From a virus (taxonomy: Duplodnaviria; Heunggongvirae; Uroviricota; Caudoviricetes), in the IMG/VR virus record IMGVR_UViG_3300046642_001000, positions 103,935 to 167,934 of that record: a stretch of DNA of 64,000 nt, one strand, 5' to 3'. The notes under the pieces are model-generated. The model did not search any database. It saw nothing but the letters and a program-made list of their open reading frames with translations, and was not told the DNA's origin. Numbering within the stretch: the stretch's first letter is position 1; every line of letters starts with the position of its first letter. The position numbers and the translations under genes are program-made. Below are positions 5,616-47,149 of the stretch, in pieces.

Positions 5616-8600
5616 TTGTCCCGGCTCGACGACATCATCCGAGAGTCGCTCCGATCAATCTACGGGGCGTCTCAACCAAACTACTCAGGGCGTGCAGCCG
5701 GCGGGACCGGCGACAACCGGCATGGCGGTGGTGCGGGCAAGCCCGGGTACCCGGTGCCGGACGGTCTCGAGGACGACGAAGAGCAGCGGTTCCCCTTCAT
5801 GAAGGAAGGCGAGGCACCCTTGGCCAAGTCCCCCATCCCCGACGATGCCGGCGCCGCACAGGAGCCGACCGTCACCTACTCCGACCAGAGCGATCTCACC
5901 GAAGGCGGCAACGCCATGGGGACCGACCGTGTCCCCCGTGAGAACGTCGGACCGACGATCGAGGCCTACAAGAAGCAGGTCCTCTCCAAGGTCAAGCACA
6001 AGTCCGTGAAGCCCGTGGGTTCCACCGGCAAGAAGGCGTCCAGCGGGGACATCGACCTCGGCCTGGACACCGAACTGTCCCTCGAAGAGATCTCGGCCAT
6101 CCTGAAGAAGCTGGGGATCGAGCACAAGGTCGCCAAGGGACTGGGCGAGATCAACTCCAAGTTCCCGCAGTACACCCCTGATGGCAAGCCCACCAAGCTC
6201 TCCGCCCAGGTCGACCTGATGGTCGGTCCGGAGGCGTGGACCCAGTTCTCCTATTATGGACCTGGCGAGAGCGAGTCTAAGTACAAGGCGCTTCCCCGCA
6301 CAGGTCTCGTCCTCGGTCTCCTCCGGTACGCCACCGAGGAACCGCAGCCGGACGGCTCGGTCAAGTTCTGGTCCATCAGCCCGGCCAAGGGAGTCTTCCA
6401 GAAGGTCGGTCGGAAGGTCAAGAACAAGAAGGGCGAGGAAGAGTTCAAGTCGGACCGTGTGGACGCCACCAGCATCAGTGATCCCGAGGAAGTGGCCAAG
6501 CTCATCTCCAAGGGCACCGGCACGCCGTGGTCCGTGAAGGACCTGGCTGCGCCGTTCGAGCAGGTGTGGGCCAAGGCCAAGTCCACCATGGATCCGAAGA
6601 AGCTGGAGAAGGTCAAGGGCTACCTGAAGGGCTTCCTCAAGGGAGCCAAGCACGACGAGCCGTCGGAGCTCGGTGAAGCGAACGAGCCCGAGGGCGTCGT
6701 CTTCCGCGGTCTCCGTGGTCTCACTCCCCAGGAGCTCGCCAAGCTCGGCGGCAATCCGTCCCAGCCGAACGGCTCGGCGGTGATCAGCAAGGTCGACAAG
6801 AAGGGCTACTGGTCCGCCAATCCGAAGCTGGCCATGGTCTATGCCACCACCGCGGCCACTGCGGAACGGAAGGGCAACATCATGGCGATCCTCCGCGGGC
6901 GTTCGGACGCCGCGACCAAGGGTTCGGCCAAGGCGCTCAACCCCGGCACCCACGAGACCCGGATCGACAAGATCTGGTGGTCGACGGATCCGGGCCAGCT
7001 GAAGGCGGCCAAGCTCGACGAGGGCGGCGGCATCTCTCACCTCGAGGACATGAAGCCCCAGGAGTTCCTGCAGTTCCTGGCGAAGTACAAGGACCTGCCG
7101 CTCAAGGGCGGGCTCGAGGTCTCCGAGAAGGTGGACGGCTCCGCCCGCATGGAGTTCGGTGCCGAGAACGGAAAGCTCTGGACCAAGAGCAAGAACGGGA
7201 CTCCGAAGAAGTCTTCGAAGGAGTGGCCGGACAAGCCGATGTTCGCGGCTCTCAAGAACGCCCACAAGGCGCTCGAGTCCAAGCCGGTGGGACAGAACAT
7301 CCCGCCGAACACCGTCTTCACGGCCGAGGTCCTGTACACCAAGATCCCGAACTCCATCGAGTACGGTCCGAACGTCATCATGATCCACGGCGTCCACAAG
7401 GGCGACGCGGTCCTGTCCGACGAGGCCTCCAAGAAGGTGGCCAACGACCTCATCAAGAAGTCGGGCGGCCAGCTCACGGACGGCAAGGACCCGTGGAAGT
7501 TCGAGTACAAGCGGGTCATCAGCCCGGAAGACGTGATGGTGGACGTCAAGGAGGAGTTCACCTCCCTCGGACAGATCTACCAGGAGCTGAAGAAGCTCGA
7601 GCCGGACAAGCTGAAGGCGGCGGGCAAGGGCCCGTACAAGGCGGCCATGGAGCGCTTCTCGGCGATCCAGAAGGCGGTCAAGGAGAAGCTGGTCGGACAG
7701 CTCCGGAAGCAGAAGTCCTCCTACGGTCCCGAAGGCGGGGACGTGGAAGGCATCGTCTTCCGTGACCTGGAGAACGGCGCGCTCACCAAGCTCGTCGACA
7801 AGGACCTCTTCACGAAGCTCAACCAGTTCAACTGGAAGTACCGCGGTCTCATCGGCAAGGGGACCAAGGTCGACAACATCTGGCGGAACGGCGTCATCTC
7901 CGACTTCAGGAAGCGGGTGGCCACCGACGTCATCGGGAAGCCTGAGGCGGCCAGCACCGCCTTCGGCCGGCAGCTCTCTTCCCTGAACTCCGAGACAGAG
8001 TACCCGAAGGAAGCCGACACCCCCGAGAAGAAGAACGACTACCTGCTCGGACAGTGGGTGAAGAAGAACAAGGCCTTCGGCGGAAAGGACCCGGTCGCGA
8101 CCTTCAAGGCCGAGATCACCAAGGCTCAGAACGAGATGAAGCAGCTCGAGGCCGAGTGGGCCGCCGAGAAGAAGAAGGGGCCGACCGTCCAGCTCAAGGG
8201 GCAGACCCGGAAGATGGACCCGCTCGTGATGCAGCGGACGGACACGGACTTCCAGCAGGCCCACCAGTCGCTGGACGAGCTCCAGAAGGCCGCCGAGGCG
8301 ATCGGTGGGCTCAAGGGCGACCTGACCAAGAAGGTAGCCATCATGAAGCTCTTCCTCGGCCAGCACCGTCTGGAGAGGCTCCAGGGCGGCGGCGAGGAAG
8401 AGGCCGAGGAATCCGTCATGCGTGAAGCACCCGGAGTGGATTCGTACGGGGCCACCCAGCCGCAGACCGGCCAGAAGCCGACCTCGGGGTTCGACAAGAC
8501 CAGCGTCGCCCAGACCAAGACCAAGGGCGCGCCCAAGGCCACCACCGGCGTCACGACCGAGATGGCCCAGCAGATCCTCAAGAAGAACATCCCCCAGCTG

Positions 8601-11600
8601 GCGAAGCGGGGGATCAACGTCCGTGGGGCCCACCCGCTCGGGAAGGGAACACGTGGAGTCGCGTTCGACGTCGGAGGGAAGGTCCTCAAGATCACCAACG
8701 ACGAGCAGGAGGCGGTCGCTTCCTACAAGCTGATGGACGTCAACCTGAAGCACGTCGCCCGCTTCTCGGACGTCTTCCGCTTCCGTGAGGACGAGGAACT
8801 GGTCGGCGCCGTTTACGGCATCCTCCAGGAGAAGCTCGCCCCGTTCCCGGGCATGGGCAAGGACCCCAGCGGTCTGGACGCCAGCGGAGAGGCGGCTGAT
8901 CTGAACCGCGCCATCCTCGCTTTCAACCTTCAGGAGACGATCTACCGTTCGGGCTACAACTGGGACAAGACCAAGGAAGCCTGCCAGGAGGGCGTTTTCA
9001 AGAAGATCGCCGAGAAGTACCCGACCTGGAAGACGGACGAGATCGACAACAAGTACGCCATCGCCTACGCCAAGAAGATGAACGTCCAGTGGGACATCAT
9101 CACGAAGAAGGTGCATATCGACGAGATGGTGCAGGAGCTGAACTCGAAGGGGATCAAGTTCCACGACTACCACGCGGGCAACATCATGGTCCGCCAGGGC
9201 GGGGTCTACGTTCTCATCGACATCGGCTACTCCAAGGTCGCCGGCGGGAAGGAACCGCCCGTCCTGGAGAACAAGGTCCCGTACCTCGACGAAGGTCCGC
9301 CGAACAGGCTGGCCGCCCTCAAGGCCGCTCAGGCCGGTAAGAAGGCCCAGAAGGACCGTCCCATGATGGACGTGGTCCGGGACGTGCTCCCTCTCCTCAA
9401 GAAGAAGGGGATCGTGAAGGGACCGCTCAAGCCGCTCGGACACGGGGCGCACGGCATCGCCTTCGACATCGGAGCAGGTCGGGTCCTGAAGGTGACGGAC
9501 GACATCCTTGAAGCCAAGTCCTCCAACCATCTGAAGGACAAGAAGCTCAAGCACGTGGTCCACATCTTCGACGTCTTCCAGCTCCCTGGGTCGGAGTTCT
9601 ATGGCATCGTCGAGGAAAAGCTCGCCCAGATGTCGGCCTACGACAAGAAGGAGTTCGAGCTGGTGACGGACCTGCTGCAGGCCTGCAAGGCTGGCGAGGC
9701 CATCCTCTCGGGCGACTACGGCAAGGTGATGGACCAGGTCCGGCTCCACATCAAGGACAAGGACGTCCAGAAGCTGATGGACTCCCAGATGAAGGAGTTC
9801 CAGCTTCCGGAGATCATCAAGGAGCTGGCGGGCCAGCGTATCGAGTTCCTCGACTACCACGAGGGGAACCTGATGATGCGGGGCAACGACTACGTCGTCA
9901 TCGACCTCGGTCTCAGCCAGAGCCCGGGCGCGGCTCCCCCTGTCCTCGAGCGGATCGTCCACACCCTGATGCGGGAGTTCTCCGGTACCCAGCGCCTCAA
10001 GGGCCAGGGTCCGGTGGGACGTGCCGACGACCTGGAAGAGCGGAGCAAGCCGGACTACACGGACGACAAGCAGGAGTACGTCGGCGTAGACGGCGGCCTC
10101 GTGAATCACACCGAGGACGGCACGGTCGACAAGTACGCTCGAAACATCGAGGAGGCCCAGGCTGACACGGTGGGCGTGACCATAGGACGTTACCAGCCGT
10201 TCCACCGGGGTCACGCCGAAGTGATTCGGAAGCTCGCCAATACCCACACCAAGACCATCGTCCTGGTGGCCGGCAACACGCCGGACAAGAAGAACCCGTT
10301 CTCCTACGAGACCCGGCTCAAGCTCATGAAGGCGTCCCTCCCGGACGTCTGGAGGAAGCTGGAGGTCTACAAGGCGACCTCGGGCGGCAAGAACAGCGGC
10401 TTCGTCCCGGGCATCCTCTCCGACGTGGCCGGGAAGGGCAGCGCCCTGAAGGGCGACACGGCCTGCGAGATCCTGGTCGGACCCGACCGTTTCGAGCAGA
10501 TGAAGCAGCAGATCGACCGGTCCAAGGAGTACAAGGCCCAGGGGAAGGCGGCAGACAGCAACTTCGATCCCGATCTGGCCGTCGTCAAGATGCTTCCGGG
10601 CGTCAAGAACGACGACGACACCGACCGGATCAGCGGCACCCGTCTACGTCAGGCTCTGGCCAAGGACGACCGGAACGCCGTCAAGAGCATGCTCGACCCG
10701 CATGTCACCTCGAACCAGGCGACCTTCGAGTCCATCTACAAGGATCTGAAGGACGAGCTGGCCAAGAACGAGGGTCCGCTCCGGGAAGACATCGCCGACT
10801 TCGGTGGCGAGAACGCCATCATGGCCGTCATCAAGAACAACGGGGAGAAGCTCCGTGCCAAGGGCATCAACGCCGACCAGCTCCATCGCCTCGGAGCGGG
10901 ACAGGTCGGCGTGGCCTACGACATGGGCAACAACAAGGTCTTCAAGGCGACGACCTCTCCCAACGAGGCGAAGTCCTGCCTCGCCCTCAAGGGAAAGACC
11001 CTTCCGCACGTCGTCAAGATCGATGACGTCTTCCGGATGATCGACCGTCGAAACCCCGACAAGCCCCTCTACGGAATCATCCGGGAGAAGCTACACCCCC
11101 TGTCTCCGGCCGAGAAGACCGAGGTCGATGACCTGGTCGATGACCTCCGCTCCTCCGAAGTCACGGGCGGGGCGCCCCACATCGTGGACTACGACACGGT
11201 CATGAAGAAGATCCGTGACGAGCTCTCTCGCGACCTGGTGTCTGCCGGCGCCAAGAACCGCGAGCGGATCCAGCGGATGATCGACCAGAAGATCGACTAC
11301 ATCGAGCGCGGTCTGAAGAAGTACCAGATCGACCAGATGATGGCGGAGCTCAAGCAGGCCAACATCATGTTCGCCGACTACAAGGGCGACAACATCATGA
11401 AGCGTGGCGGGGAGTACGTGCTCTCTGACCCGGGCGGCCGTACCAACGGCGGCGAACCGCCCGTGCTCGAGAAGATCATGGAGACCATCATCTCCGAGAT
11501 CGGCATCACCATGACCCCGGGAAGCGGCCCCGGCGGAACTCAGGCAGGTCTCAGGGCGGGAAGCTCCGGCTGGTCCAGCCCGCAGAACATGTTCACCGAC

Positions 11601-12521
11601 GAGGACGTCGCGGCCTACCAGGAAGCGCCGGAAGAGTTCGAGCTCTGGTCCGACAAGCTGAAGGGTGTCGACACGGCCAAGGCCATCGGGGAAGAGATCA
11701 TGCGGCTCCTTGAGAAGACTCAGGCCAAGACGTCTGACCGCGCCTCCAACCAGTTCGAGCACCTGGTGGCCAAGTCCCTCCAGAGCCAGGGCATCGACGC
11801 CAAGGCCGTCGGTGGCAACGATCCGAAGAAGGCGGACGTCGAGGTGACCATCGGCGGGAAGAGCGCCTACATCGAGGCCAAGTACACCGAGGCCGGCGGC
11901 GCCAACCTCGTCTCGGCCCGCATGAAGCTGGTGGACGGGAAGTGGCAGGGATCGGGCGAGCAGACCGGCTTCACGGCCGGGATCGCCAAGGACCTGGAGA
12001 CGAACCCCGACGCCCAGAAGTTCCTGAAGGAACTGCACGCCTTCGTGGCCAAGAGCCGCAAGGAGCAGGGTCTTCCGGTGCCCAAGGTCCTCTCCATGCC
12101 GTCGCAGGGGAAGCCCGCCGACATCATGAAGCGTAGTCCGAACGCCGTGACCCCGGACGAGATCAACGCCTTCATCGACAACAAGAAGTCGGCAGGCAAG
12201 GGCAACCGCTACATCTACCTGAACGTCGGGGCGGGGGACGTGCAGCAGCTGGTGGCCGCCCACTACAAGTACAAGAACGCCCCGTACATGCAGTTCGGCA
12301 ACGACTTCTATCTTCTTGGAGACGAGGACCCGTTCGGTCTCTCCAAGCTCAATCCGCCCGTCCCCCAGTTCGAAGTGACCTCGGGACGGAAGGGGGTACG
12401 TGTAGCATCCAGGACCGGTCGTTACGAGATCATCCCCGAGCTGAAGGCCCTGAAGGTCACTCCCTCTCCCTACAGCCTGGTCGATCCGAAGAAGAAGTTC
12501 CCATTCAAGAAGCAGAAGTAA
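5616..12521 (+). CDS. giant multidomain protein of 2301 aa carrying five enzyme-like domain types
   Basis: TTG start 5 nt after an AAGGAGGG Shine-Dalgarno; very high GC3; GS..G....SGDIDL near residue 135; KVDGSAR near residue 504; three G.G..G.A.D.G...K + HDYH.GN + IDIG modules each ending PPVLE; GRYQPFHRGH ... ISGTRLR. Confidence 0.85.
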   Translation: MSRLDDIIRESLRSIYGASQPNYSGRAAGGTGDNRHGGGAGKPGYPVPDGLEDDEEQRFPFMKEGEAPLAKSPIPDDAGAAQEPTVTYSDQSDLTEGGNAMGTDRVPRENVGPTIEAYKKQVLSKVKHKSVKPVGSTGKKASSGDIDLGLDTELSLEEISAILKKLGIEHKVAKGLGEINSKFPQYTPDGKPTKLSAQVDLMVGPEAWTQFSYYGPGESESKYKALPRTGLVLGLLRYATEEPQPDGSVKFWSISPAKGVFQKVGRKVKNKKGEEEFKSDRVDATSISDPEEVAKLISKGTGTPWSVKDLAAPFEQVWAKAKSTMDPKKLEKVKGYLKGFLKGAKHDEPSELGEANEPEGVVFRGLRGLTPQELAKLGGNPSQPNGSAVISKVDKKGYWSANPKLAMVYATTAATAERKGNIMAILRGRSDAATKGSAKALNPGTHETRIDKIWWSTDPGQLKAAKLDEGGGISHLEDMKPQEFLQFLAKYKDLPLKGGLEVSEKVDGSARMEFGAENGKLWTKSKNGTPKKSSKEWPDKPMFAALKNAHKALESKPVGQNIPPNTVFTAEVLYTKIPNSIEYGPNVIMIHGVHKGDAVLSDEASKKVANDLIKKSGGQLTDGKDPWKFEYKRVISPEDVMVDVKEEFTSLGQIYQELKKLEPDKLKAAGKGPYKAAMERFSAIQKAVKEKLVGQLRKQKSSYGPEGGDVEGIVFRDLENGALTKLVDKDLFTKLNQFNWKYRGLIGKGTKVDNIWRNGVISDFRKRVATDVIGKPEAASTAFGRQLSSLNSETEYPKEADTPEKKNDYLLGQWVKKNKAFGGKDPVATFKAEITKAQNEMKQLEAEWAAEKKKGPTVQLKGQTRKMDPLVMQRTDTDFQQAHQSLDELQKAAEAIGGLKGDLTKKVAIMKLFLGQHRLERLQGGGEEEAEESVMREAPGVDSYGATQPQTGQKPTSGFDKTSVAQTKTKGAPKATTGVTTEMAQQILKKNIPQLAKRGINVRGAHPLGKGTRGVAFDVGGKVLKITNDEQEAVASYKLMDVNLKHVARFSDVFRFREDEELVGAVYGILQEKLAPFPGMGKDPSGLDASGEAADLNRAILAFNLQETIYRSGYNWDKTKEACQEGVFKKIAEKYPTWKTDEIDNKYAIAYAKKMNVQWDIITKKVHIDEMVQELNSKGIKFHDYHAGNIMVRQGGVYVLIDIGYSKVAGGKEPPVLENKVPYLDEGPPNRLAALKAAQAGKKAQKDRPMMDVVRDVLPLLKKKGIVKGPLKPLGHGAHGIAFDIGAGRVLKVTDDILEAKSSNHLKDKKLKHVVHIFDVFQLPGSEFYGIVEEKLAQMSAYDKKEFELVTDLLQACKAGEAILSGDYGKVMDQVRLHIKDKDVQKLMDSQMKEFQLPEIIKELAGQRIEFLDYHEGNLMMRGNDYVVIDLGLSQSPGAAPPVLERIVHTLMREFSGTQRLKGQGPVGRADDLEERSKPDYTDDKQEYVGVDGGLVNHTEDGTVDKYARNIEEAQADTVGVTIGRYQPFHRGHAEVIRKLANTHTKTIVLVAGNTPDKKNPFSYETRLKLMKASLPDVWRKLEVYKATSGGKNSGFVPGILSDVAGKGSALKGDTACEILVGPDRFEQMKQQIDRSKEYKAQGKAADSNFDPDLAVVKMLPGVKNDDDTDRISGTRLRQALAKDDRNAVKSMLDPHVTSNQATFESIYKDLKDELAKNEGPLREDIADFGGENAIMAVIKNNGEKLRAKGINADQLHRLGAGQVGVAYDMGNNKVFKATTSPNEAKSCLALKGKTLPHVVKIDDVFRMIDRRNPDKPLYGIIREKLHPLSPAEKTEVDDLVDDLRSSEVTGGAPHIVDYDTVMKKIRDELSRDLVSAGAKNRERIQRMIDQKIDYIERGLKKYQIDQMMAELKQANIMFADYKGDNIMKRGGEYVLSDPGGRTNGGEPPVLEKIMETIISEIGITMTPGSGPGGTQAGLRAGSSGWSSPQNMFTDEDVAAYQEAPEEFELWSDKLKGVDTAKAIGEEIMRLLEKTQAKTSDRASNQFEHLVAKSLQSQGIDAKAVGGNDPKKADVEVTIGGKSAYIEAKYTEAGGANLVSARMKLVDGKWQGSGEQTGFTAGIAKDLETNPDAQKFLKELHAFVAKSRKEQGLPVPKVLSMPSQGKPADIMKRSPNAVTPDEINAFIDNKKSAGKGNRYIYLNVGAGDVQQLVAAHYKYKNAPYMQFGNDFYLLGDEDPFGLSKLNPPVPQFEVTSGRKGVRVASRTGRYEIIPELKALKVTPSPYSLVDPKKKFPFKKQK

Positions 12522-25354: not shown

Positions 25355-26419
25355 ATGAAGCGCACGACAAAGCTCAGGATCTTCTACAAGTCCAAGTCCT
25401 CAGGACAGGGTCACAATCCCTACCACACGGGCGGACTGGCGGCGAACGCGCTGCACACCGTCGGCGTCCTCCGTCGGGAGGGTGTAGACGTAGACCTCGT
25501 CGCCGTGTCCAGCTTCGACGAGCTGGCGGCCTACCTTCGGGCCAACCCGGACATCACCCACGCCGTCATCGAGGCGGTCTGGGTCAAGGCGTCCGAGGTC
25601 GTCCTCCTGTCCCACGCCCACCCCCACCTCAAGATCGTGGTGCGGGCGCACTCCAAGATCGGGTTCCTCCAGGTCGAGCCCGAGGCCATCCCGGTCATCC
25701 GGGCCCTCATCGACCTCGGGGAAGAGTACCCGAACATCTCTTTCTCCAGCAACAACCAGGAGTTCTGCAACTCTCTCGGGGAAGTCTACGGCGACGTGCT
25801 CTACCTGCCGAACCTCTTCGACTGGGACGGGTCTCCCCCGAAGAAGCACAGCCACGATCGCATCCTCAGGCTGGCTTCTTTCGGTGCCACCCGGCTCCTG
25901 AAGCTCCACTCTTCCGCGGCACTGGCGGCCCTTCAGGTCGCCGTCCGCCTCGACCGGCAGCTGGAGTTCTACGTCAATACCGACAATACCCCGGGAGGTC
26001 ACAGCGTCCGGAACACGATGCGGAACCTCTTCGCTGGTCTCCCCTGGGCGAAGCTGATCGAGGTGAGCTGGCAGGACGCGGCCACCTTCCGGGAGACCAT
26101 CGCTGAGATGGACCTGGTCTTCCAGCTGTCCGCCACCGAGACCTTCTGCCTGGTGGCCGCGGACGCCGTGTCCAGCGGGGTGCCAGTGATCGTCGGAGAG
26201 GCCGTCAGCTGGGTGCCGGAAAGGTACCAGTCCAACATCGACGACACCTCGGAGGCGGCAACCGAGGCCATCCGCGCACTGGAGAGCAGCCACAAGACGG
26301 TCAAGGTGCAGCAGGAAGCCCTGAACGACTTCGTGGAGTCTTCGACTCGGATCTGGCGCACGTTCCTCGGGATGCCGAGCGGACGGGAAAGCCGTAAGAA
26401 CCTCTGGTGGATTTTCTAA
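25355..26419 (+). CDS. GT-B fold glycosyltransferase (GT1/GT4-like)
   Basis: C-terminal SATETFCLVAADAVSSGVPVIVGE resembles the GT4 E..G..EAMA.G.PVI donor-binding block. Confidence 0.55.
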   Translation: MKRTTKLRIFYKSKSSGQGHNPYHTGGLAANALHTVGVLRREGVDVDLVAVSSFDELAAYLRANPDITHAVIEAVWVKASEVVLLSHAHPHLKIVVRAHSKIGFLQVEPEAIPVIRALIDLGEEYPNISFSSNNQEFCNSLGEVYGDVLYLPNLFDWDGSPPKKHSHDRILRLASFGATRLLKLHSSAALAALQVAVRLDRQLEFYVNTDNTPGGHSVRNTMRNLFAGLPWAKLIEVSWQDAATFRETIAEMDLVFQLSATETFCLVAADAVSSGVPVIVGEAVSWVPERYQSNIDDTSEAATEAIRALESSHKTVKVQQEALNDFVESSTRIWRTFLGMPSGRESRKNLWWIF

Positions 26420-31121: not shown

Positions 31122-32951
31122 ATGACCATCGCAACCGTGCTCGCGTTCTGGTGGGTCGTACCCATCGTCCTGACCCTCGTGCTCTACAAGTTCGTGCTCC
31201 GGCTCTGCTTCGGGATGGTCTCCGTCTCGAAGGACGAGGTCGGCATCGTCGACAAGAAGTTCGCCCTCTTCGGCGCGAAGACCCTGCCCGACGGTGCCGT
31301 CATCGCCCTGAAGGGTGAGGCCGGCTTCCAGGCGGACACGCTGGCCCCTGGCGTCCACTTCGGCCTCTGGCCGTGGCAGTACGCGGTCACCCTCCAGAAG
31401 TTCGTGAACATCCCGGAGAACCACGTCGGGCTCATCGAGTCGCGAGGTGGCCAGGTTCCGGTGAACGGTCGAGTCCTCGCGCGAAAGGTCGAGTGTGACT
31501 CGTTCCAGAACGCCCGCGCCTTCCTCGAGGCAGGCGGAGAACGTGGTCCCCAGATCGCCATCATCACCCCCGGCACCTACCGCATCAACACGGTCCTCTT
31601 CTCCCTGAGGATCGTGGAGGCTCTCGAGATCCCCGACAACATGGTCGGCGTGGTCACCACCAAGGACGGCAAGCCCCTCTCGACCGGTGACATCGCCGGC
31701 GGAGAGTTCCCCGGCCACAACATGTACCAGGACGGCGAGGCCTTCATCACCGCCGGTGGCTACAAGGGCCTGCAGGAGCAGGTCATCCTGGCCGGCCTGT
31801 ACTACATCAACCCGCTCTTCGCCACCGTGGAAGTGAAGCCGATGACCGAGGTGCCCATCGCCAATGCTGGCGTGGTCATCGCCTACGTCGGTGGGGTCGG
31901 TGTGGACGTCACGGGTGAGTCCTTCAAGCACGGCAACCTCGTGGTCCGTGGGCAGAAGGGTGTGTGGGTCGAGCCGCTGGACCCGGGCAAGTACCCGATC
32001 AACCCGTACACCCACAAGGTCGAGGTCGTGCCGACGGCCAACGTCGTCCTCAACTGGGCGACCGGCAAGACCGAGGCGCACAAGCTGGACGCCAACCTGT
32101 CCACCATCACGGTGCGTAGCTCCGACGGCTTCAAGTTCAATCTGGACGTGAGCCAGATCATCCACATCCCCCGGACCGACGCCCCCAAGGTCATCGCCCG
32201 CTTTGGCAGCGTGGCCAACCTGGTCACCCAGGTCCTGGAGCCGACCATCGGCAACTACTTCAGGAACGCGGCCCAGGGCTCGGACGCCATCGCCTTCCTC
32301 AAGGAGCGCGAGAAGCGCCAGCAGGACGCCCGGGCTTCCATCAACAACGCCCTGAAGGAGTACAACGTCGGAGCGGTGGACACCCTCATCGGTGACATCA
32401 CCCCGCCGGACGCCCTCATGGAGACCCTGACGAAGCGGAAGATCGCCGAGCAGGAGAAGATCACGTTCGACACCCAGCGCATGGCCGAGGAGACCCGCAA
32501 GGAGTTCGAGCAGGCCAAGGCGATGGCGGCCACCCAGGCCAACGTCGTCGAGTCCCAGCGGAAGGTCCAGATCGCCGAGTTCGACGCCCAGTCGGCGGTC
32601 AAGAAGGCGGAAGGCGACGCCCAGTCCAAGACCATCAACGCCAAGGCGGATGCCGAGGTGCTCGTGGCCATCGGTGACGCCGAGGGCAAGAAGATCACGG
32701 CGGTCGGCACGGCCGAGGCCGAGGTCATCCAGAAGAAGACCGACGCGAACGGCAAGGCCAACTACGCCCTCATCGAGGTGGCACGCGCCCTCTCCTCGTC
32801 CGGTCACGCCCTGGTCCCGGAGATCATGGCCGGTGGCGGTCTCGACGGCAACAACCAGGGCGGCCTGGTGAACGTCCTCCTGGCCGGCCTCATCAAGGAC
32901 GGCCTCTCGAAGAACGGCAGCAACGGCGGCGGCACTCCCGAGTCCCACTAA
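31122..32951 (+). CDS. flotillin/SPFH (band 7) family membrane protein
   Basis: N-terminal transmembrane segment, an SPFH-like domain, and a long Ala/Glu-rich coiled coil (EAEVIQKKTDANGKANYALIEVARAL). Confidence 0.65.
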   Translation: MTIATVLAFWWVVPIVLTLVLYKFVLRLCFGMVSVSKDEVGIVDKKFALFGAKTLPDGAVIALKGEAGFQADTLAPGVHFGLWPWQYAVTLQKFVNIPENHVGLIESRGGQVPVNGRVLARKVECDSFQNARAFLEAGGERGPQIAIITPGTYRINTVLFSLRIVEALEIPDNMVGVVTTKDGKPLSTGDIAGGEFPGHNMYQDGEAFITAGGYKGLQEQVILAGLYYINPLFATVEVKPMTEVPIANAGVVIAYVGGVGVDVTGESFKHGNLVVRGQKGVWVEPLDPGKYPINPYTHKVEVVPTANVVLNWATGKTEAHKLDANLSTITVRSSDGFKFNLDVSQIIHIPRTDAPKVIARFGSVANLVTQVLEPTIGNYFRNAAQGSDAIAFLKEREKRQQDARASINNALKEYNVGAVDTLIGDITPPDALMETLTKRKIAEQEKITFDTQRMAEETRKEFEQAKAMAATQANVVESQRKVQIAEFDAQSAVKKAEGDAQSKTINAKADAEVLVAIGDAEGKKITAVGTAEAEVIQKKTDANGKANYALIEVARALSSSGHALVPEIMAGGGLDGNNQGGLVNVLLAGLIKDGLSKNGSNGGGTPESH

Positions 32952-32960
32952 GGAGCCAAC

Positions 32961-33185
32961 ATGGCCAAGATCAAGATCACCTGGATGAGTGACGGAGCAG
33001 GCGTCGATAGCATCCACGAGAACGGTCCCAAGATGGCCAAGGACAGTTATCTTGGCCACATCACCCGCATCGAGGACGAGTGGTTCTTCGTCCAGGCGGG
33101 AGTCCAGAAGCCGCACGGTCCCTACGGTTCGATGGCGGAAGTTCGCCGAGCAGCTCTCAAGATCGTCGATGGGGAGTACATCTAG
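32961..33185 (+). CDS. small hypothetical protein
   Basis: 74-aa ORF. Confidence 0.45.
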   Translation: MAKIKITWMSDGAGVDSIHENGPKMAKDSYLGHITRIEDEWFFVQAGVQKPHGPYGSMAEVRRAALKIVDGEYI

Positions 33186-33187
33186 GT

Positions 33188-34321
33188 ATGTCCATGCGCG
33201 TCGCTCTCGTCATTCCGACCATCCGGGAGAACTCCTTCAAGGACTTCATCTCCCGGTGGGAAGCCCTCGGTCTCTATCAGGCAGTCGACCTGATCGTGAT
33301 GGAGGACAACCCGAAGAAGACCTTCGACGTTTCCAGCGTCGACAAGCGGTGGGGAGCGGTCCACCTCTGCTGGGAAGACATCGAGGCTGACCTCGGGAAA
33401 GACAGCTGGATCATCCCCCGGCGTTCGGACACGGTCAGGAGCTACGCGTACTACTACGCCTGGAAGATGGGTTACGATTTCATCCTCACCCTCGACGACG
33501 ACTGCTACCCGCCGTCGAGGGATGTGGATGGACTTCAGTACGAGGACGGGGAGTCGTTCGTCGCCTCCCACCTCCAGTACCTGGAGAAGCGGACCCGGTG
33601 GTTCAACACCCTGAACAAGGTGAAGCCACGTGGCATCCCGTTCTACAACCTCGGTCGCAACGACAAGGTGATCGTCAATCACGGGCTCTGGACCAACGTG
33701 CTGGACTACGACGCCCCGTTCCAGCTGGCCAACCCGATCCCCGAGGAGTTCAGCTTCGACAACCGGATCGTGCCCAACGGCTCGTACTTCCCGATGTGCG
33801 GCATGAACGTCATGTGGCGCCGGGACGCGACGGTCCTCATGTACCACCTGCTCATGGGCCAGGTCCTCCACTCCAGAGAGAACAGCAAGATCTACACCCC
33901 GCCCCTGGGGACTCTCCTCACGGTCCCGGACTCTCCGGGCCTGGCGCTGGAGAAGTTGGCCTTCGACAGGTTCGGCGACATCTGGTGCGGCATCCTGATG
34001 AAGAAGATCGCGGACGTGAAGCGTCTTCAGGTCTCGACAGGCATGCCCTACATCCGGCACGAACGGGCCAGCAACCCGTTCGCCAACCTGAAGAAGGAAG
34101 CGAACGGCATCGAGGTCAACGAGAAGTTCTGGGAGCACGTCGACAAGGCTCAGATCTCTCCGGGGCTCGACCTGGATGGCTGCTATGGCGAGATGGGGCA
34201 ACACATCGGAGCCTATTCGGAGTACCCAGAACACGCCCAGTACTTCAGGCGGCTGGGGGAAGCGATGGTCATCTGGTCCAAGCTCTTCCGGCGCCACGGC
34301 GGCGGAACTTCGGGAGTCTGA
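33188..34321 (+). CDS. GT75-like glycosyltransferase (reversibly glycosylated polypeptide / UDP-arabinopyranose mutase family)
   Basis: IPTIR, TLDDDCYP (DxD), HGLWTNVLDYDAPFQL, PMCGMN, and STGMPYIRHERASNPFANLKKE aligning with plant RGP blocks. Confidence 0.7.
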   Translation: MSMRVALVIPTIRENSFKDFISRWEALGLYQAVDLIVMEDNPKKTFDVSSVDKRWGAVHLCWEDIEADLGKDSWIIPRRSDTVRSYAYYYAWKMGYDFILTLDDDCYPPSRDVDGLQYEDGESFVASHLQYLEKRTRWFNTLNKVKPRGIPFYNLGRNDKVIVNHGLWTNVLDYDAPFQLANPIPEEFSFDNRIVPNGSYFPMCGMNVMWRRDATVLMYHLLMGQVLHSRENSKIYTPPLGTLLTVPDSPGLALEKLAFDRFGDIWCGILMKKIADVKRLQVSTGMPYIRHERASNPFANLKKEANGIEVNEKFWEHVDKAQISPGLDLDGCYGEMGQHIGAYSEYPEHAQYFRRLGEAMVIWSKLFRRHGGGTSGV

Positions 34322-43161: not shown

Positions 43162-44028
43162 ATGGATCGCGTCGATGACATCTACGGCGACGGTATCGGA
43201 TACGTGCACCTTCTGGACAGCATGGGGGACGAGTTCACTCCCGCCGAGGACGCCCGCACCAGCACCAACAAGGGGCGCCTCGGTCCGGAGAAGGACGCGG
43301 CTCTCCAGGAACGTCTGACCAAGGACGCTCACACCTCCCCGTTCGAGGGGGTGGTGGTCAAGGTGGAGATCATGACCCCGCTCTTCGTCCTCAGGGAGCT
43401 GGACCGCCACCGCACGGTATCGAAGGTCGCCGACGAAGATGTGGAGATCATCACCCCTGAGGAGTCTGGCCGGAAGTGGTTCGCTCGCAACGAGATGAGC
43501 GGCCGCTACGTCCAAATGCCGAACCTCTACTACCACCCGGTCCAGGTTCGCGCCCAGAGCAAGACGAACATGCAGGGCGGCGGACCGATCCAACTGGTGG
43601 ACGACGCGGTGGCTCGGGAGTTCAAGGAGTCTGGCCAGGTTCTCTGTATGATGGCCCGGGACCTCTATGACCGGGCAGTCGCTGCCGGAGTCGAGAAGGG
43701 GATCGCCCGCATCTACAACACCCAGAACCAGTACACCAAGATCAGACTCACAGGAAGCCTCAAGAACTTCTGTGACTTCCTGTACCTCCGGCTACCAGGG
43801 GTGGTGCTGTGGGAGTGTCGGAGAGTCGCCGAGGCGCTCGAGGAGCTGCTGAAGGAAGCTTTCCCCTCTCCCATGGAGCAGTGGCGCAGGAACATCTACG
43901 AAACTGTCCGACTGACCAAGGCCGATCGAGCGGCGCTGGTCGAGATGATGGACGCCTTGGGAGAGTTCGGAGACGAGTCACTGCTTCCGGCAGAGTGGCA
44001 GTCGGCCCTAGCAAAGGTGAGGGGATAG
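43162..44028 (+). CDS. thyX: flavin-dependent thymidylate synthase (ThyX)
   Basis: ThyX signature LDRHRTVSKVADEDVE ... SGRY (RHR-x7-8-S ... SxRY). Confidence 0.75.
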   Translation: MDRVDDIYGDGIGYVHLLDSMGDEFTPAEDARTSTNKGRLGPEKDAALQERLTKDAHTSPFEGVVVKVEIMTPLFVLRELDRHRTVSKVADEDVEIITPEESGRKWFARNEMSGRYVQMPNLYYHPVQVRAQSKTNMQGGGPIQLVDDAVAREFKESGQVLCMMARDLYDRAVAAGVEKGIARIYNTQNQYTKIRLTGSLKNFCDFLYLRLPGVVLWECRRVAEALEELLKEAFPSPMEQWRRNIYETVRLTKADRAALVEMMDALGEFGDESLLPAEWQSALAKVRG

Positions 44029-44036
44029 GTATCGCC

Positions 44037-44696
44037 ATGAATGACAACCTGAACGGCAGTCACCGCAACGGTCCGCAGAACGCTGAGGATGGAGACATCC
44101 TCCCCGAGATCCGGCCCGAGCTGGTGGAAGCTGCCACACAAGCACCGCAGTTCGACAGCACGAACTACATGGCCGAGAACAAGTCTCGGTTCCCGCCGGC
44201 CCCGGGCAAGATCCCGAAGGACGCCCGGCCGGAGGAGCGGATGGCGATGATCGCCACCGGCGCCCCGATCGAACGGGTACGAGAGCTCCAGAGCCTGCCC
44301 AATCCTGGTCTGATCCAGGAGTCGATCGAGAAGCTGGGCACCGCCTTCCTGACGGGGGATCCGGAGATCGACCAGCTCTACGCGGAGTGCATCAAGTGCT
44401 TCGCCGAGAAGGGCGCCGAGTACACGGTCGGTAGCAAGGATCGCCTCGCCAACTTCAGGGGTGTCGCCCAGGACGTGGACGTCCCGATGGAGAAGGTCTG
44501 GTACACCTTCTTCAACAAGCACCTTCGCGCCCTCCAGTCGTACATCAAGAACGGCTGCACCGTGAAGAGCAACGAGCCGATCCGGAGCCGCATCATGGAC
44601 CTGATCGTCTACCTCACCCTCTTCCACAAGATGAGCCTCGAGATCGAGCGGAAGCGCGAAGAGGCGCTCCGGGCAGAACACGGTGTCATCTCGTAG
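44037..44696 (+). CDS. hypothetical protein
   Basis: 219-aa ORF. Confidence 0.5.
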   Translation: MNDNLNGSHRNGPQNAEDGDILPEIRPELVEAATQAPQFDSTNYMAENKSRFPPAPGKIPKDARPEERMAMIATGAPIERVRELQSLPNPGLIQESIEKLGTAFLTGDPEIDQLYAECIKCFAEKGAEYTVGSKDRLANFRGVAQDVDVPMEKVWYTFFNKHLRALQSYIKNGCTVKSNEPIRSRIMDLIVYLTLFHKMSLEIERKREEALRAEHGVIS

Positions 44697-44712
44697 GATC
44701 CTGTAGTATAAT
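44680..44712 (+). promoter_or_regulatory. promoter: TCTCGTAGG element then TGTAGTATAAT
   Basis: shares the TCTCGTAG core with the promoter at 60159; ATG follows 8 nt after the hexamer. Confidence 0.4.
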
Positions 44713-44720
44713 AGGATCAG

Positions 44721-45242
44721 ATGGCACACGCTTGCATGGAGGGTTCGATGGAAGAGACCGAGAAGAAGTGGGAACGACAGCACCGGGAGCAGACCGAGTT
44801 CCTGGCGTCCATCGGGCAGAAGTACCCGCCCTGTGGCTTCTCCATCGGTGACGGCTGGAAAGAGCCGGTCTTCGAAGCCCTACGGAAGGTGGCTGCGATC
44901 GCCAAGGAAGCCGGGCTGGAATGGGAGCTCGCCCAGGTGAAGCAGAAGTTCTGCCAGCTCCGCATCTACATCGACGTGGAGACCCCGGGCGTCACCCGTG
45001 AGAACCACAACTCGGAGACCAATCCCTGGCTCTTCGAGGAGAACCATCCCCTCCACGCCAAGTACGACGAGATCCACGCGGCCATCGGCGTGGCCGAGAG
45101 CGCCTGCAACGTCCGCTGCGAATCATGCGGTGGAGACACCAAGGGCGGCGCGGCCTCGGGCTGGAAGGGCTGCACGGCCTGCAAGGCGGCGGAGAAGCGG
45201 GAGTACGAGAAGAAGTACCCCGGCGAGAAGTGGGAGGACTAG
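44721..45242 (+). CDS. hypothetical protein
   Basis: 173-aa ORF, leaderless-type start. Confidence 0.5.
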   Translation: MAHACMEGSMEETEKKWERQHREQTEFLASIGQKYPPCGFSIGDGWKEPVFEALRKVAAIAKEAGLEWELAQVKQKFCQLRIYIDVETPGVTRENHNSETNPWLFEENHPLHAKYDEIHAAIGVAESACNVRCESCGGDTKGGAASGWKGCTACKAAEKREYEKKYPGEKWED

Positions 45243-45668
45243 ATGCCCTGTCGTGACGACTGGCCTTCGCCCACCGGGGCACAGGCACGCAGCCAAAGAG
45301 CGGCCCAGCTCCTCGTCTCTCTCTACGAGAAGATGGGGAAGCCGGTCACCAGCTCCCTGAAGAACGACGCCAAGGACTGCTACTGCAACACGGACCACGT
45401 GAAGGTCCTGTGCGCGATCCTGAAGGCGATGAGTGAAGGGGAGCGGGACGTCTACCTCTACGATCCACGGGACCGCAAGGCCCGGGCGTTGGCCGACTGG
45501 TGGGAGGACCACCTGGAGTCCGACCGGCAGCGGGAACAGGCGGAGAAGAAGAAGACCCAGCTCAAGAAGCTCCGCCTCAGCGCCTTGAAGAAGCTGACCA
45601 AGGCCGAGATCGTGGCACTGGACATCTCGGAGTACAAGATCATCCAGTGGGAGAAAGAAGAGGAGTAA
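45243..45668 (+). CDS. hypothetical protein
   Basis: 141-aa ORF with a Lys/Glu-rich C-terminus. Confidence 0.5.
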   Translation: MPCRDDWPSPTGAQARSQRAAQLLVSLYEKMGKPVTSSLKNDAKDCYCNTDHVKVLCAILKAMSEGERDVYLYDPRDRKARALADWWEDHLESDRQREQAEKKKTQLKKLRLSALKKLTKAEIVALDISEYKIIQWEKEEE

Positions 45669-45669
45669 C

Positions 45670-46155
45670 ATGGACCCGCTCCGTTGGGCAAAGTTCTTCG
45701 CCGTAGTGAAGCACGGCAACCAGACGTACTCAGGTTGTCTCCCCTACAGCCACCACCTGGCCGCCGTGGAAGCGGTGCTCCGCCGCTTCGGAGTGGACAT
45801 GCAGTACTTCTTGGAAGCCGCCTGGCTCCACGACGTGGTGGAAGACACCAACACGAAGCTCAAGGAGATCTACGAGTTCTTCGGCCCCGAGGTTGCAGAC
45901 TTGGTCGGAGCCGTGACCAACGAGCCCGGGGCAAACAGGAAGATCAGAGGGATGCTGACGTACCCGAAGATCCGTGCCGTGAAGGGCGCCACTCGGCTGA
46001 AGCTGGCGGACCGCATCGCCAACGTCGAGCAGGGCGGGAAGCTCGTCGACATGTACCGCAAGGAGTACGAGGACTTCAAGAGGAACCTCTTCGTCGCCGG
46101 CGAGAACGAGGACATGTGGAACCACCTCGACGGGATTATGAAGGAGGAAGCATGA
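45670..46155 (+). CDS. RelA/SpoT-type HD-domain hydrolase (small alarmone hydrolase-like)
   Basis: HH ... AAWLHDVVEDT, matching the (p)ppGpp hydrolase signature AALLHDVIEDT. Confidence 0.6.
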   Translation: MDPLRWAKFFAVVKHGNQTYSGCLPYSHHLAAVEAVLRRFGVDMQYFLEAAWLHDVVEDTNTKLKEIYEFFGPEVADLVGAVTNEPGANRKIRGMLTYPKIRAVKGATRLKLADRIANVEQGGKLVDMYRKEYEDFKRNLFVAGENEDMWNHLDGIMKEEA

Positions 46156-46751
46156 AGATTCTCGTCGACCAGGACGAGGTGCTCGCCGAGTGGGGCAAGC
46201 GCATCCTCGAGTGGTACAACCTCGACAAGGCCATTGAAGCCAGGGAACAGAACCTCCCAGCCCCGCGGGTCTTCACCCTCGAGGACATGAAGCACTGGGA
46301 GCTGAAGATGAACCTCGGCCCCGGCAGTGAGGTCTACCTCAGGAACTACATGAGGTACCCGAACTTCTACCAGGACCTGGAGCCCGTCGAGGGAGCCATC
46401 GAAGGGATGAAGGCCCTCATCGACGCTGGCCACGAGGTCAAGATCGTGACCTCCATTCCCAAGTGCGCCGGCCTGGCGTACGAGGGGAAGCTGCAGTGGC
46501 TGCGTGAGTACATGCCCTTCTTCCCCCTGAAGAAGTTCTACGCCGTCAGTGAGAAGTATGAGGTGAAGGGCGACCTCCTTCTCGACGACGGTCTCCACAA
46601 CCTCACTCCTTTCCAAAGTGTGGGTGTCGCCGTCGCCTTCGACCGGCCGTGGAACCAGAGCTGGACCGGACCGCGCGTCAAGAGCTGGCCGGAGTTCGTT
46701 AAGTTCGTAGAGTTTGCCAAGAGCATCCGCTCTCACGGTGAACCTACTTAA
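46152..46751 (+). CDS. 5'(3')-deoxyribonucleotidase, HAD superfamily
   Basis: N-terminal ILVDQDEV (DxDxV) motif. Confidence 0.6.
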   Translation: MKILVDQDEVLAEWGKRILEWYNLDKAIEAREQNLPAPRVFTLEDMKHWELKMNLGPGSEVYLRNYMRYPNFYQDLEPVEGAIEGMKALIDAGHEVKIVTSIPKCAGLAYEGKLQWLREYMPFFPLKKFYAVSEKYEVKGDLLLDDGLHNLTPFQSVGVAVAFDRPWNQSWTGPRVKSWPEFVKFVEFAKSIRSHGEPT

Positions 46752-46784
46752 ATCTCCAACGCCACAACATTCCAGGAGGAAACC

Positions 46785-47117
46785 ATGGCGAAGCGCCGCA
46801 CGACCAAGACCGAGAAGCTGCTCCGAGAGATCCAGAAGGCCGGCAAGACCGGGCTCTCCCACAAGGAGATCGTCAAGTTCCTGCTTCGTGGCACCGGCCG
46901 CAAGTACGGCCCCGAGACGCGTCGGCTCTTCGACTCGCGCCTCTACGGCACGAACAGCCGCAGCGGCGTCCTCGAGCGTTGCGACCGCAACTTCAAGAAC
47001 GGCAACTACACCCTCTCGAAGAAGGCCACGACCGAGGGTCCCTTCACCGAGTCGCTGGCCCAGCCGGTGTTCTCCGCCTACGAGCCGTCCTACACGGACG
47101 AGGACTACACCTACTAG
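46785..47117 (+). CDS. hypothetical protein
   Basis: 110-aa ORF; AGGAGGA Shine-Dalgarno upstream. Confidence 0.5.
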   Translation: MAKRRTTKTEKLLREIQKAGKTGLSHKEIVKFLLRGTGRKYGPETRRLFDSRLYGTNSRSGVLERCDRNFKNGNYTLSKKATTEGPFTESLAQPVFSAYEPSYTDEDYTY

Positions 47118-47149
47118 TCCTTCCCAAGGAGGAGGTTCCGTGGTATAAT
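47117..47149 (+). promoter_or_regulatory. class A promoter: GTCCTTCCC then 21 nt then GTGGTATAAT
   Basis: the upstream element starts at the G of the preceding TAG stop; fixed 27-nt spacing; ATG follows 6 nt after the hexamer. Confidence 0.5.

Follow-up and report, generated by a model that had tools for sequence, protein, structure and literature searches.

What does a stand-alone gene with a RelA/SpoT-like motif do in the genome of a tailed phage? The question arises from a 64,000-nucleotide stretch of IMG/VR record IMGVR_UViG_3300046642_001000 (Caudoviricetes; positions 103,935 to 167,934), called the window here. In it, an initial annotation had placed a RelA/SpoT-type HD hydrolase that might dismantle the host stringent response or degrade the signalling nucleotides of defence systems. 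We find that the gene product is a single-domain hydrolase of the RelA/SpoT homologue (RSH) family, a small alarmone hydrolase (SAH), and that it most likely takes the 3'-pyrophosphate off bacterial alarmones. The gene is an exact open reading frame (ORF) on the plus strand, running from an ATG at 45670 to a TGA at 46153-46155 and encoding 161 residues. Its start codon is supported by the MDPLR N-terminus that most homologues share. A Shine-Dalgarno-like GAGGAG precedes the ATG and forms the 3' end of the upstream gene, directly before that gene's TAA stop (45666-45668). The near-identity of AAWLHDVVEDT to the RelA/SpoT motif, on which the initial annotation was built, is real: 9 of the 11 positions equal the AALLHDVIEDT of E. 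coli SpoT.

Profile searches agree on the family. The Pfam model HD_4, an RSH-specific HD domain and the check that the initial annotation had proposed, scored 37.9 bits (E=1.8e-9), above its gathering score of 27.2, and the generic HD model PF01966 reached 15 bits, under its cut-off of 22. The NCBIfam model TIGR00691 (spoT_relA) matched at E=4.5e-15 through its hydrolase part only, with residues 10-120 aligned to model positions 4-120, and the best PHROG was phrog_990, 'metal-dependent phosphohydrolase' (E=3e-29). When the protein was used as a single query against PDB sequences, Mesh1 from fly and human came out best (E=1e-9), followed by the P. aeruginosa SAH, C. glutamicum RelH, Lmo0812 and Rel/SpoT hydrolase domains; every match was an RSH hydrolase. 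A clade profile built from 42 close homologues raised Mesh1 to E=3e-18, and 22 of its 22 matches were RSH hydrolase domains. Because of the E-values for HD_4, TIGR00691, phrog_990 and Mesh1, the similarity lies far beyond chance. The 161 residues hold one domain, with no synthetase, TGS or ACT domain. The best 120 of the 2,606 matches in a word-indexed homologue search (62-100% identity, 157-242 aa) likewise carry HD-type domains only, HD_4 and in a few cases also PF01966.

The predicted structure leads to the same family. AlphaFold2, given the alignment behind the clade profile, produced a model of ten helices with a pLDDT of 94.5 and a pTM of 0.90. The model has the all-alpha HD fold and superposes on solved SAH and Mesh1 structures. 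Foldseek ranked Mesh1 (3nqw) first in the PDB, with a query TM-score (TMq) of 0.85 and a root-mean-square deviation of 2.6-2.9 Å to the Mesh1 structures. Human MESH1 with NADPH (5vxa) or PAPS (9chy) scored 0.84-0.85, and the P. aeruginosa SAH (6yvc, 6z3o, 6z3n) scored 0.74-0.78. RelH, a Leptospira SAH and Rel/SpoT catalytic domains came next. The (p)ppApp hydrolase Aph1 (7smg) was weaker (TMq 0.57-0.66, E about 2e-4) and was absent from both the single-sequence and the profile searches of the PDB, which makes it a match at the level of fold only. Among the viral models of BFVD, 21 share the SAH fold at E<=1e-3; they include models from Caulobacter, Tenacibaculum, Klebsiella, Providencia and Vibrio phages and from some giant viruses.

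We then asked which residues have been kept, using the 42 close homologues and 149 diverse representatives of clusters at 50% identity. Invariant in all 42 are H15, Y20, Y26, H29, W52, H54, D55, E58, D59, T83, R90, R93, K111, D114, R115 and N118. Of the 149 representatives, at least 147 retain each of these catalytic-site residues: the metal ligands H29, H54, D55 and D114, both members of the E58-D59 pair, and N118. Within HD3 the counts are 147 for H, 148 for D, 148 for E and 147 for D; within HD6, K111, D114 and R115 occur in all 149 and N118 in 147. These positions align with H35, H61, D62, E65, D66, D122 and N126 of Mesh1 and with their SpoT equivalents, and because of this alignment the enzyme looks catalytically intact. 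The protein therefore has the H...HD...D metal tetrad, the Glu-Asp pair of HDxxED and the KLADRxxN motif of RSH hydrolases, including the HD6 Asn that contacts the ribose in TtRel (PMC10083569). Taken together, profile, fold and active-site residues bear out the RelA/SpoT-type identity.

The same evidence speaks to whether the protein could be a generic HD phosphohydrolase, of the dNTP triphosphohydrolase, 5'-nucleotidase or cyclic-nucleotide phosphodiesterase type, or an enzyme that degrades cyclic oligonucleotides, an activity that the initial annotation had also entertained. An HD motif is certainly present, and phage homologues bear labels such as 'metal-dependent phosphohydrolase' or 'HD/PDEase-like'. 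However, the generic model falls short where HD_4 passes, and neither the PDB sequence matches nor the top 50 fold matches include a dNTPase, YfbR-type or PDEase structure. HDxxED and KLADRxxN are, moreover, specific to RSH hydrolases. Nothing in the analysis supports cyclic-oligonucleotide degradation: the neighbouring genes gave no convincing PADLOC match, and we found no report of such cleavage by the RSH hydrolase family. We give this explanation hardly any credence. The initial annotation was to be given up if generic HD proteins matched best and Rel-specific residues were missing. The first is contradicted by the sub-threshold generic score and the RSH-only PDB matches, but on the second count one substitution stands, a Tyr in place of the HD1 Arg.

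That substitution is the most distinctive feature of the protein. Y20 occupies the position of the base-stacking Arg of Rel, SpoT and Mesh1 (R43 in TtRel, R24 in Mesh1), and it is found in 42 of 42 close homologues and 138 of 149 diverse representatives. HMMER aligned the clade profile to A. baumannii SpoT without gaps, placing Y-G-S opposite R-K-S. A profile-anchored alignment likewise set Y20 opposite the R of QTRSS in E. coli SpoT and the second R of QRRK in MESH1. The residue that follows is Ser or Gly in the clade, compared to R or K in Rel. In TtRel, R43 and R44 stack on the guanine and S45 hydrogen-bonds to it (PMC10083569).

The missing Arg bears on base specificity rather than on catalysis and is no argument against activity, because Aph1 (D24) and the SAH of phage PVP-SE1 (QKDKG at this site) are both active without it. 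SSU5 PaSpo, another active SAH, has RKYTG; its Tyr aligns with Y20, though the alignment requires an insertion and is less certain. The (p)ppApp-specific Aph1 has D-K-A at the guanine-contact positions, and its D24R/R119A double mutant gains ppGpp hydrolysis (PMC10083569). Because the clade has altered the residues that set the base, the preference among (p)ppGpp, (p)ppApp and tRNA 3'-pyrophosphate cannot be inferred. As a separate observation, the validated PbcSpo SAH of PVP-SE1 (gp220, L014:40783-41292) has an Asp at the HD1 base contact, as Aph1 does at D24, which may bear on the substrate preference of gp220.

One reading of the altered pocket is that the enzyme is an adenosine specialist. 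Its main substrates would be (pp)pApp and/or tRNA 3'-pyrophosphorylated at the CCA end, it would have little (p)ppGpp activity, and it would serve as a dedicated counter-defence against toxSAS toxins (CapRel, FaRel, PhRel) or Tas1-like toxins. In place of the guanine triad of TtRel (R43, R44, S45) this SAH has Y20-S21-G22, the Tyr being invariant among close homologues, and changes at equivalent positions switch A/G specificity in Aph1 (PMC10083569). SAH(Mex) shows that a (p)ppApp-specific SAH is possible (PMC7644958), toxSAS toxins are neutralised by SAHs from phages, and SSU5 PaSpo undoes a tRNA modification (PMC7229694, PMC11245113). Additionally, some relatives have an RtcB or RNA ligase gene in their vicinity. 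Yet an aromatic Tyr could stack on either purine, so the substitution alone does not predict a preference for adenine; the RNA-ligase association is limited to 1 of 73 bacterial loci and does not extend to the window; and no host with a toxSAS system is on record for the phage. We consider this reading possible but unlikely. We are just as tentative about its extension to the whole Tyr-for-Arg clade (this SAH, the phiCbK-like and Nodularia proteins and thousands of metagenomic relatives), which would then be a distinct subfamily with a pocket tuned to adenosine substrates. If true, the clade would be a widespread, dedicated phage counter-defence against toxSAS immunity and not a modulator of the stringent response.

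How widespread the clade is can be gauged from its homologues. An exhaustive search of clusters at 50% identity returned 9,112 at E<=1e-3, 2,297 at E<=1e-10 and 66 at E<=1e-30. Homologues occur in 189 deposited phage genomes, mainly of Pseudomonas, Vibrio, Caulobacter phiCbK-like and Nodularia phages, often under the two labels mentioned above. Chromosomal relatives 40-51% identical were found in Sorangium, Chondromyces, Labilithrix, Nocardia, Sphingomonas and Flavobacteriia, and the bacterial copies that we checked are orphans with unrelated neighbours. These relatives span delta- and alpha-proteobacteria, Acidobacteria and Flavobacteria, a spread that resembles the one listed for paSpo (PMC3153485), which we take as suggestive and nothing firmer. 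The clade profile scored 178 bits against the Nodularia protein, 156 against that of phiCbK, 90 against human MESH1, 82 against SSU5 PaSpo and 54 against PVP-SE1 PbcSpo. Judged by these sequence scores, the SAH is part of a separate, uncharacterised clade whose distance to Mesh1 (90 bits) is much the same as that to PaSpo (82 bits).

We turned to the genome for further clues to function (Table 1). The window covers the part of a large uncultivated phage genome, about 200 kb in size, that holds the genes for replication and nucleotide metabolism. PHROG matches include a DnaE-like polymerase, Pol I, DnaB, UvsX and a ribonucleotide reductase (RNR), and the window also encodes ThyX, an NT5C nucleotidase and a metallophosphoesterase; its GC content is 0.62 and it has 0 tRNA genes. 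Metagenomic contigs as long as 204,762 bp encode an identical SAH protein, and near-identical contigs are listed as IMG/VR uncultivated viral genomes (UViGs). A nucleotide-level search found no related cultured phage, and the DnaE-like polymerase shares no more than about 30% identity with that of any deposited phage.

Table 1. Features of the SAH gene and its surroundings, in window coordinates.
Feature	Position	Strand	Basis or remark
SAH gene (161-aa stand-alone RSH-type HD hydrolase)	45670..46155	+	ORF, HD_4, PDB matches, AF2 model
HD1/HD2 region, H15-G-N-Q18-T-Y20-S-G-C-L-P25-Y26-S-H-H29	45712..45756	+	Y20 at the guanine-stacking Arg position; H29, first metal ligand
HD3 motif AAWLHDVVEDT	45817..45849	+	residues 50-60; H54-D55 metal ligands, E58-D59 catalytic pair
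HD6 motif KLADRIAN	46000..46023	+	D114 metal ligand; N118, ribose contact in TtRel
Shine-Dalgarno-like GAGGAG	45660..45665	+	read from sequence; 4 nt 5' of the SAH ATG
Closely spaced gene pair upstream, encoding 173 aa and 141 aa (the latter phrog_11759)	44721..45668	+	function-less annotation; without RelA_SpoT synthetase domain
ThyX thymidylate synthase	43162..44028	+	PF02511, E=6e-23
NT5C-type 5'(3')-deoxyribonucleotidase gene	46152..46751	+	PF06941, E=2.9e-25; directly downstream of the SAH gene
Cys-rich N-terminus with MazG-like pyrophosphatase C-terminal domain, 225 aa	47156..47833	+	phrog_3301 'pyrophosphatase', E=1e-31
Promoter-like site GTGTCA-18-TATAAT	44683..44712	+	sigma-70-like consensus match only
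Second promoter-like site, perfect TATAAT	47121-47149	+	sigma-70-like consensus match only

The SAH gene sits in a co-directional, tightly packed run of genes. The ATG of the NT5C gene overlaps the SAH stop codon (ATGA), which suggests that the two genes are translationally coupled. Two promoter-like sites, compared to 0.5 expected, flank a five-gene unit (44721-47117) that holds the SAH gene. Beyond this unit lies the MazG-like gene, whose N-terminal segment has a CxxC...CxxC pattern (phrog_30788); Pfam and PDB sequence searches gave no match for it, so the MazG-like label comes from PHROG only. For MazG-type enzymes of phages, hydrolysis of alarmones or dNTPs has been suggested as well (PMC12846349). 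This gene may lack a functional link to the SAH and is given as context only.

The packing of the operon is relevant to whether the SAH might be the type IV antitoxin of a phage-borne toxSAS pair, like ATfaRel of C. marina. SAHs of the PbcSpo subfamily do act as antitoxins beside FaRel (PMC7229694), and the gene shares its tightly packed operon with small ORFs whose annotation gives no function. However, Pfam, both scanned and precomputed, showed no RelA_SpoT synthetase domain (PF04607) in any neighbour within ±6 kb, adjacent and co-oriented or otherwise, and PADLOC returned no convincing defence-model match there. The 141-aa upstream gene is, in addition, missing from a 93%-identical relative (L090). 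An antitoxin role is thus highly improbable: with neither a synthetase nor a PADLOC match among these neighbours, the gene stands as an orphan SAH rather than as the antitoxin of a local toxSAS pair.

The company of nucleotide-metabolism genes could instead point to a phosphatase of the nucleotide pool, resembling the NADPH 2'-phosphatase activity reported for metazoan MESH1 or acting on PAPS-type 3'-phosphorylated nucleotides. The closest structures do include human MESH1 with NADPH or PAPS, and the gene is apparently coupled to NT5C in translation, with ThyX, the MazG-like pyrophosphatase and RNR nearby. This arrangement of NT5C, ThyX and the MazG-like gene is nevertheless kept only in contigs at least 93% identical, that is, in near-identical phages. 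Under the assay conditions of PMC7644958, Mesh1 and SAH(Mex) hydrolysed NADPH weakly or not detectably, and the characterised bacterial and phage SAHs act on alarmones. We regard a pool phosphatase as improbable.

Two wider patterns were tried and rejected. A conserved gene partner was dismissed, as relatives at about 70% identity, phiCbK and the Nodularia phage have unrelated neighbours. An association with RNA repair was suggested by RtcB 2.5-3.5 kb upstream of the SAH copies in phiCbK (L006 2192-6519) and a 314 kb contig (L011 2431-6489), by an RNA ligase near the copy in a 178 kb contig (L013 1750-6489), and by an Rnl2 ligase directly upstream in Flavobacterium sp. RHBU_3 (L042:3841-5501). 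As a general pattern it failed: tblastn with these ligases hit that Flavobacterium alone among the 73 bacterial loci, and nothing in this window.

With the alternatives weighed, we think it likely that the SAH is a metal-dependent 3'-pyrophosphohydrolase that lowers alarmones or reverses toxSAS products in the infected cell. Family, fold, intact active-site residues, orphan single-domain architecture and phage origin support this reading; the chemistry, the range of substrates and the phage's advantage are what we infer. Going by its homologues, the enzyme would hold a divalent metal, Mn2+ in those that have been characterised, with H29, H54, D55 and D114, and the E58-D59 pair would activate a water. 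It would then take the 3'-pyrophosphate off a purine nucleotide that carries one, whether (p)ppGpp, (p)ppApp or both, and perhaps also off the 3'-pyrophosphorylated A76 of tRNA. Expressed along with the replication and nucleotide-supply genes of the phage, it may keep alarmones low during infection, leaving the host stringent response unable to stop transcription, replication and purine supply, and/or it may reverse the products of toxSAS-type abortive-infection toxins.

Two points weigh against this reading. Y20 and the Ser or Gly beside it suggest that (p)ppGpp may not be the preferred substrate, and the lack of a nearby toxSAS or other partner, together with neighbours that are unconserved beyond close relatives, means that the context gives no functional pointer. 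The proposal in the initial annotation that a stand-alone phage copy acts on host alarmone signalling or defence is supported: it fits experiments on other phage SAHs (PMC7229694, PMC11245113), with the caveat that (p)ppGpp, given the Tyr in place of Arg, may not be the favoured substrate.

Stand-alone phage SAHs are already known, and the annotation of this gene is sound but ordinary. Phage alarmone hydrolases are a recognised, thinly characterised means of acting against bacterial alarmone signalling and toxSAS abortive infection, and this gene adds another uncultivated large phage to their carriers. The one useful lead is the clade-wide change from Arg to Tyr in an abundant clade. The substrate preference of a single member among ppGpp, ppApp and pyrophosphorylated tRNA would inform thousands of phage and bacterial proteins.

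Several other genes of the window stood out during the analysis. A 2,301-aa ORF (5616-12521, plus strand) has as its sole recognisable domain a cytidylyltransferase-like PF01467 at residues 1522-1679 (phrog_395/3041); its other approximately 2,100 residues have no family match. The product of 33080-34321 (plus strand) falls in PF03214 (E=3.6e-35), the 'reversibly glycosylated polypeptide' family, best known from plants, and that of 25355-26419 (plus strand) matches the GT4 'conflict systems' glycosyltransferase PF20706, barely over threshold. The PF03214 and PF20706 proteins, taken with ThyX, NT5C and the MazG-like gene, might be a sign that DNA bases are modified with sugars. At 31122-32951 (plus strand) the phage encodes an SPFH/Band_7 protein (PF01145, E=2e-29), and phiCbK has a band-7 lipoprotein (L006:1032-1862) a few kb from its SAH homologue.

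Among solved proteins, Mesh1/MESH1 (3nqw, 3nr1, 5vxa) is the best match in both sequence and structure. It has a similar length of about 160-180 aa, the same metal ligands, the ED pair and a KLADxxxN motif, but it has R24 where this SAH has Tyr, its HD1 loop is two residues longer, and it is a cellular protein of eukaryotes rather than a viral one. In substrate range, Mesh1 cleaves both (p)ppGpp and (p)ppApp, whereas SAH(Mex) cleaves (p)ppApp only and RelSeq (p)ppGpp only (PMC7644958). The hydrolase domains of the long RSHs, SpoT and Rel (7qpr, 1vj7, 6s2t), are built on the same HD_4 domain, and SpoT aligns without gaps from HD1 to HD2; unlike this SAH with its Y-S-G, they make their guanine contacts with R-R/K-S. 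Because the SAH has no synthetase, TGS or ACT domain, the domain-dependent allosteric regulation of long RSHs is impossible here. Aph1, from a Bacteroides caccae prophage, is also a phage-linked alarmone 3'-pyrophosphohydrolase of HD fold without the HD1 Arg, but it is an immunity protein encoded beside a MuF-fused toxin, a partner that this SAH does not have.

The nearest relatives lie within the clade itself: gp249 of phiCbK-like phages and gp156 of Nodularia phages at 40-47% identity, and proteins of Myxococcota, Nocardia, Sphingomonas and Flavobacteriia at 40-51%. Phage and bacterial members share with this SAH the signature HxxQxYG, AAWLHD and KLADRIANVE. They are uncharacterised and are labelled 'metal-dependent phosphohydrolase', 'GTP pyrophosphokinase' or 'HD/PDEase-like'. 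In a paper on a Pakpunavirus genome, a gene of this kind is annotated and its G-versus-A preference is called unpredictable (PMC12846349).

The closest functional parallels are the SAHs of two Salmonella phages, SSU5 PaSpo (SSU5_099) and PVP-SE1 PbcSpo (gp220). Like this SAH, they are single-domain RSH hydrolases with no adjacent synthetase, and all three have the HDxxED and KLAD motifs; the phages that carry PaSpo and PbcSpo are lytic or plasmid-like. The SAH is 36% identical to SSU5_099 over 130 aa (E=1.5e-11) and 30% identical to gp220 (E=3e-5), and gp220 adjoins a thymidylate kinase gene, a nucleotide-metabolism neighbour as in the window. PaSpo and PbcSpo nevertheless appear to fall outside this clade, judged by the profile scores given above, and lack its AAW/YLHD and TYPK signature, and their activity has been shown by experiment, whereas that of this SAH is predicted from sequence and model. 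Both neutralise 5 of 5 tested toxSAS toxins (PMC7229694). SSU5 PaSpo, additionally, strips the tRNA modification installed by FaRel2 (PMC11245113) and is in routine use for CapRel detoxification (PMC9712102). SAHs are common in phages and prophages, and they have been proposed as a route for incoming phages past alarmone-mediated defence (Jimmy et al. 2020, PMC7229694).

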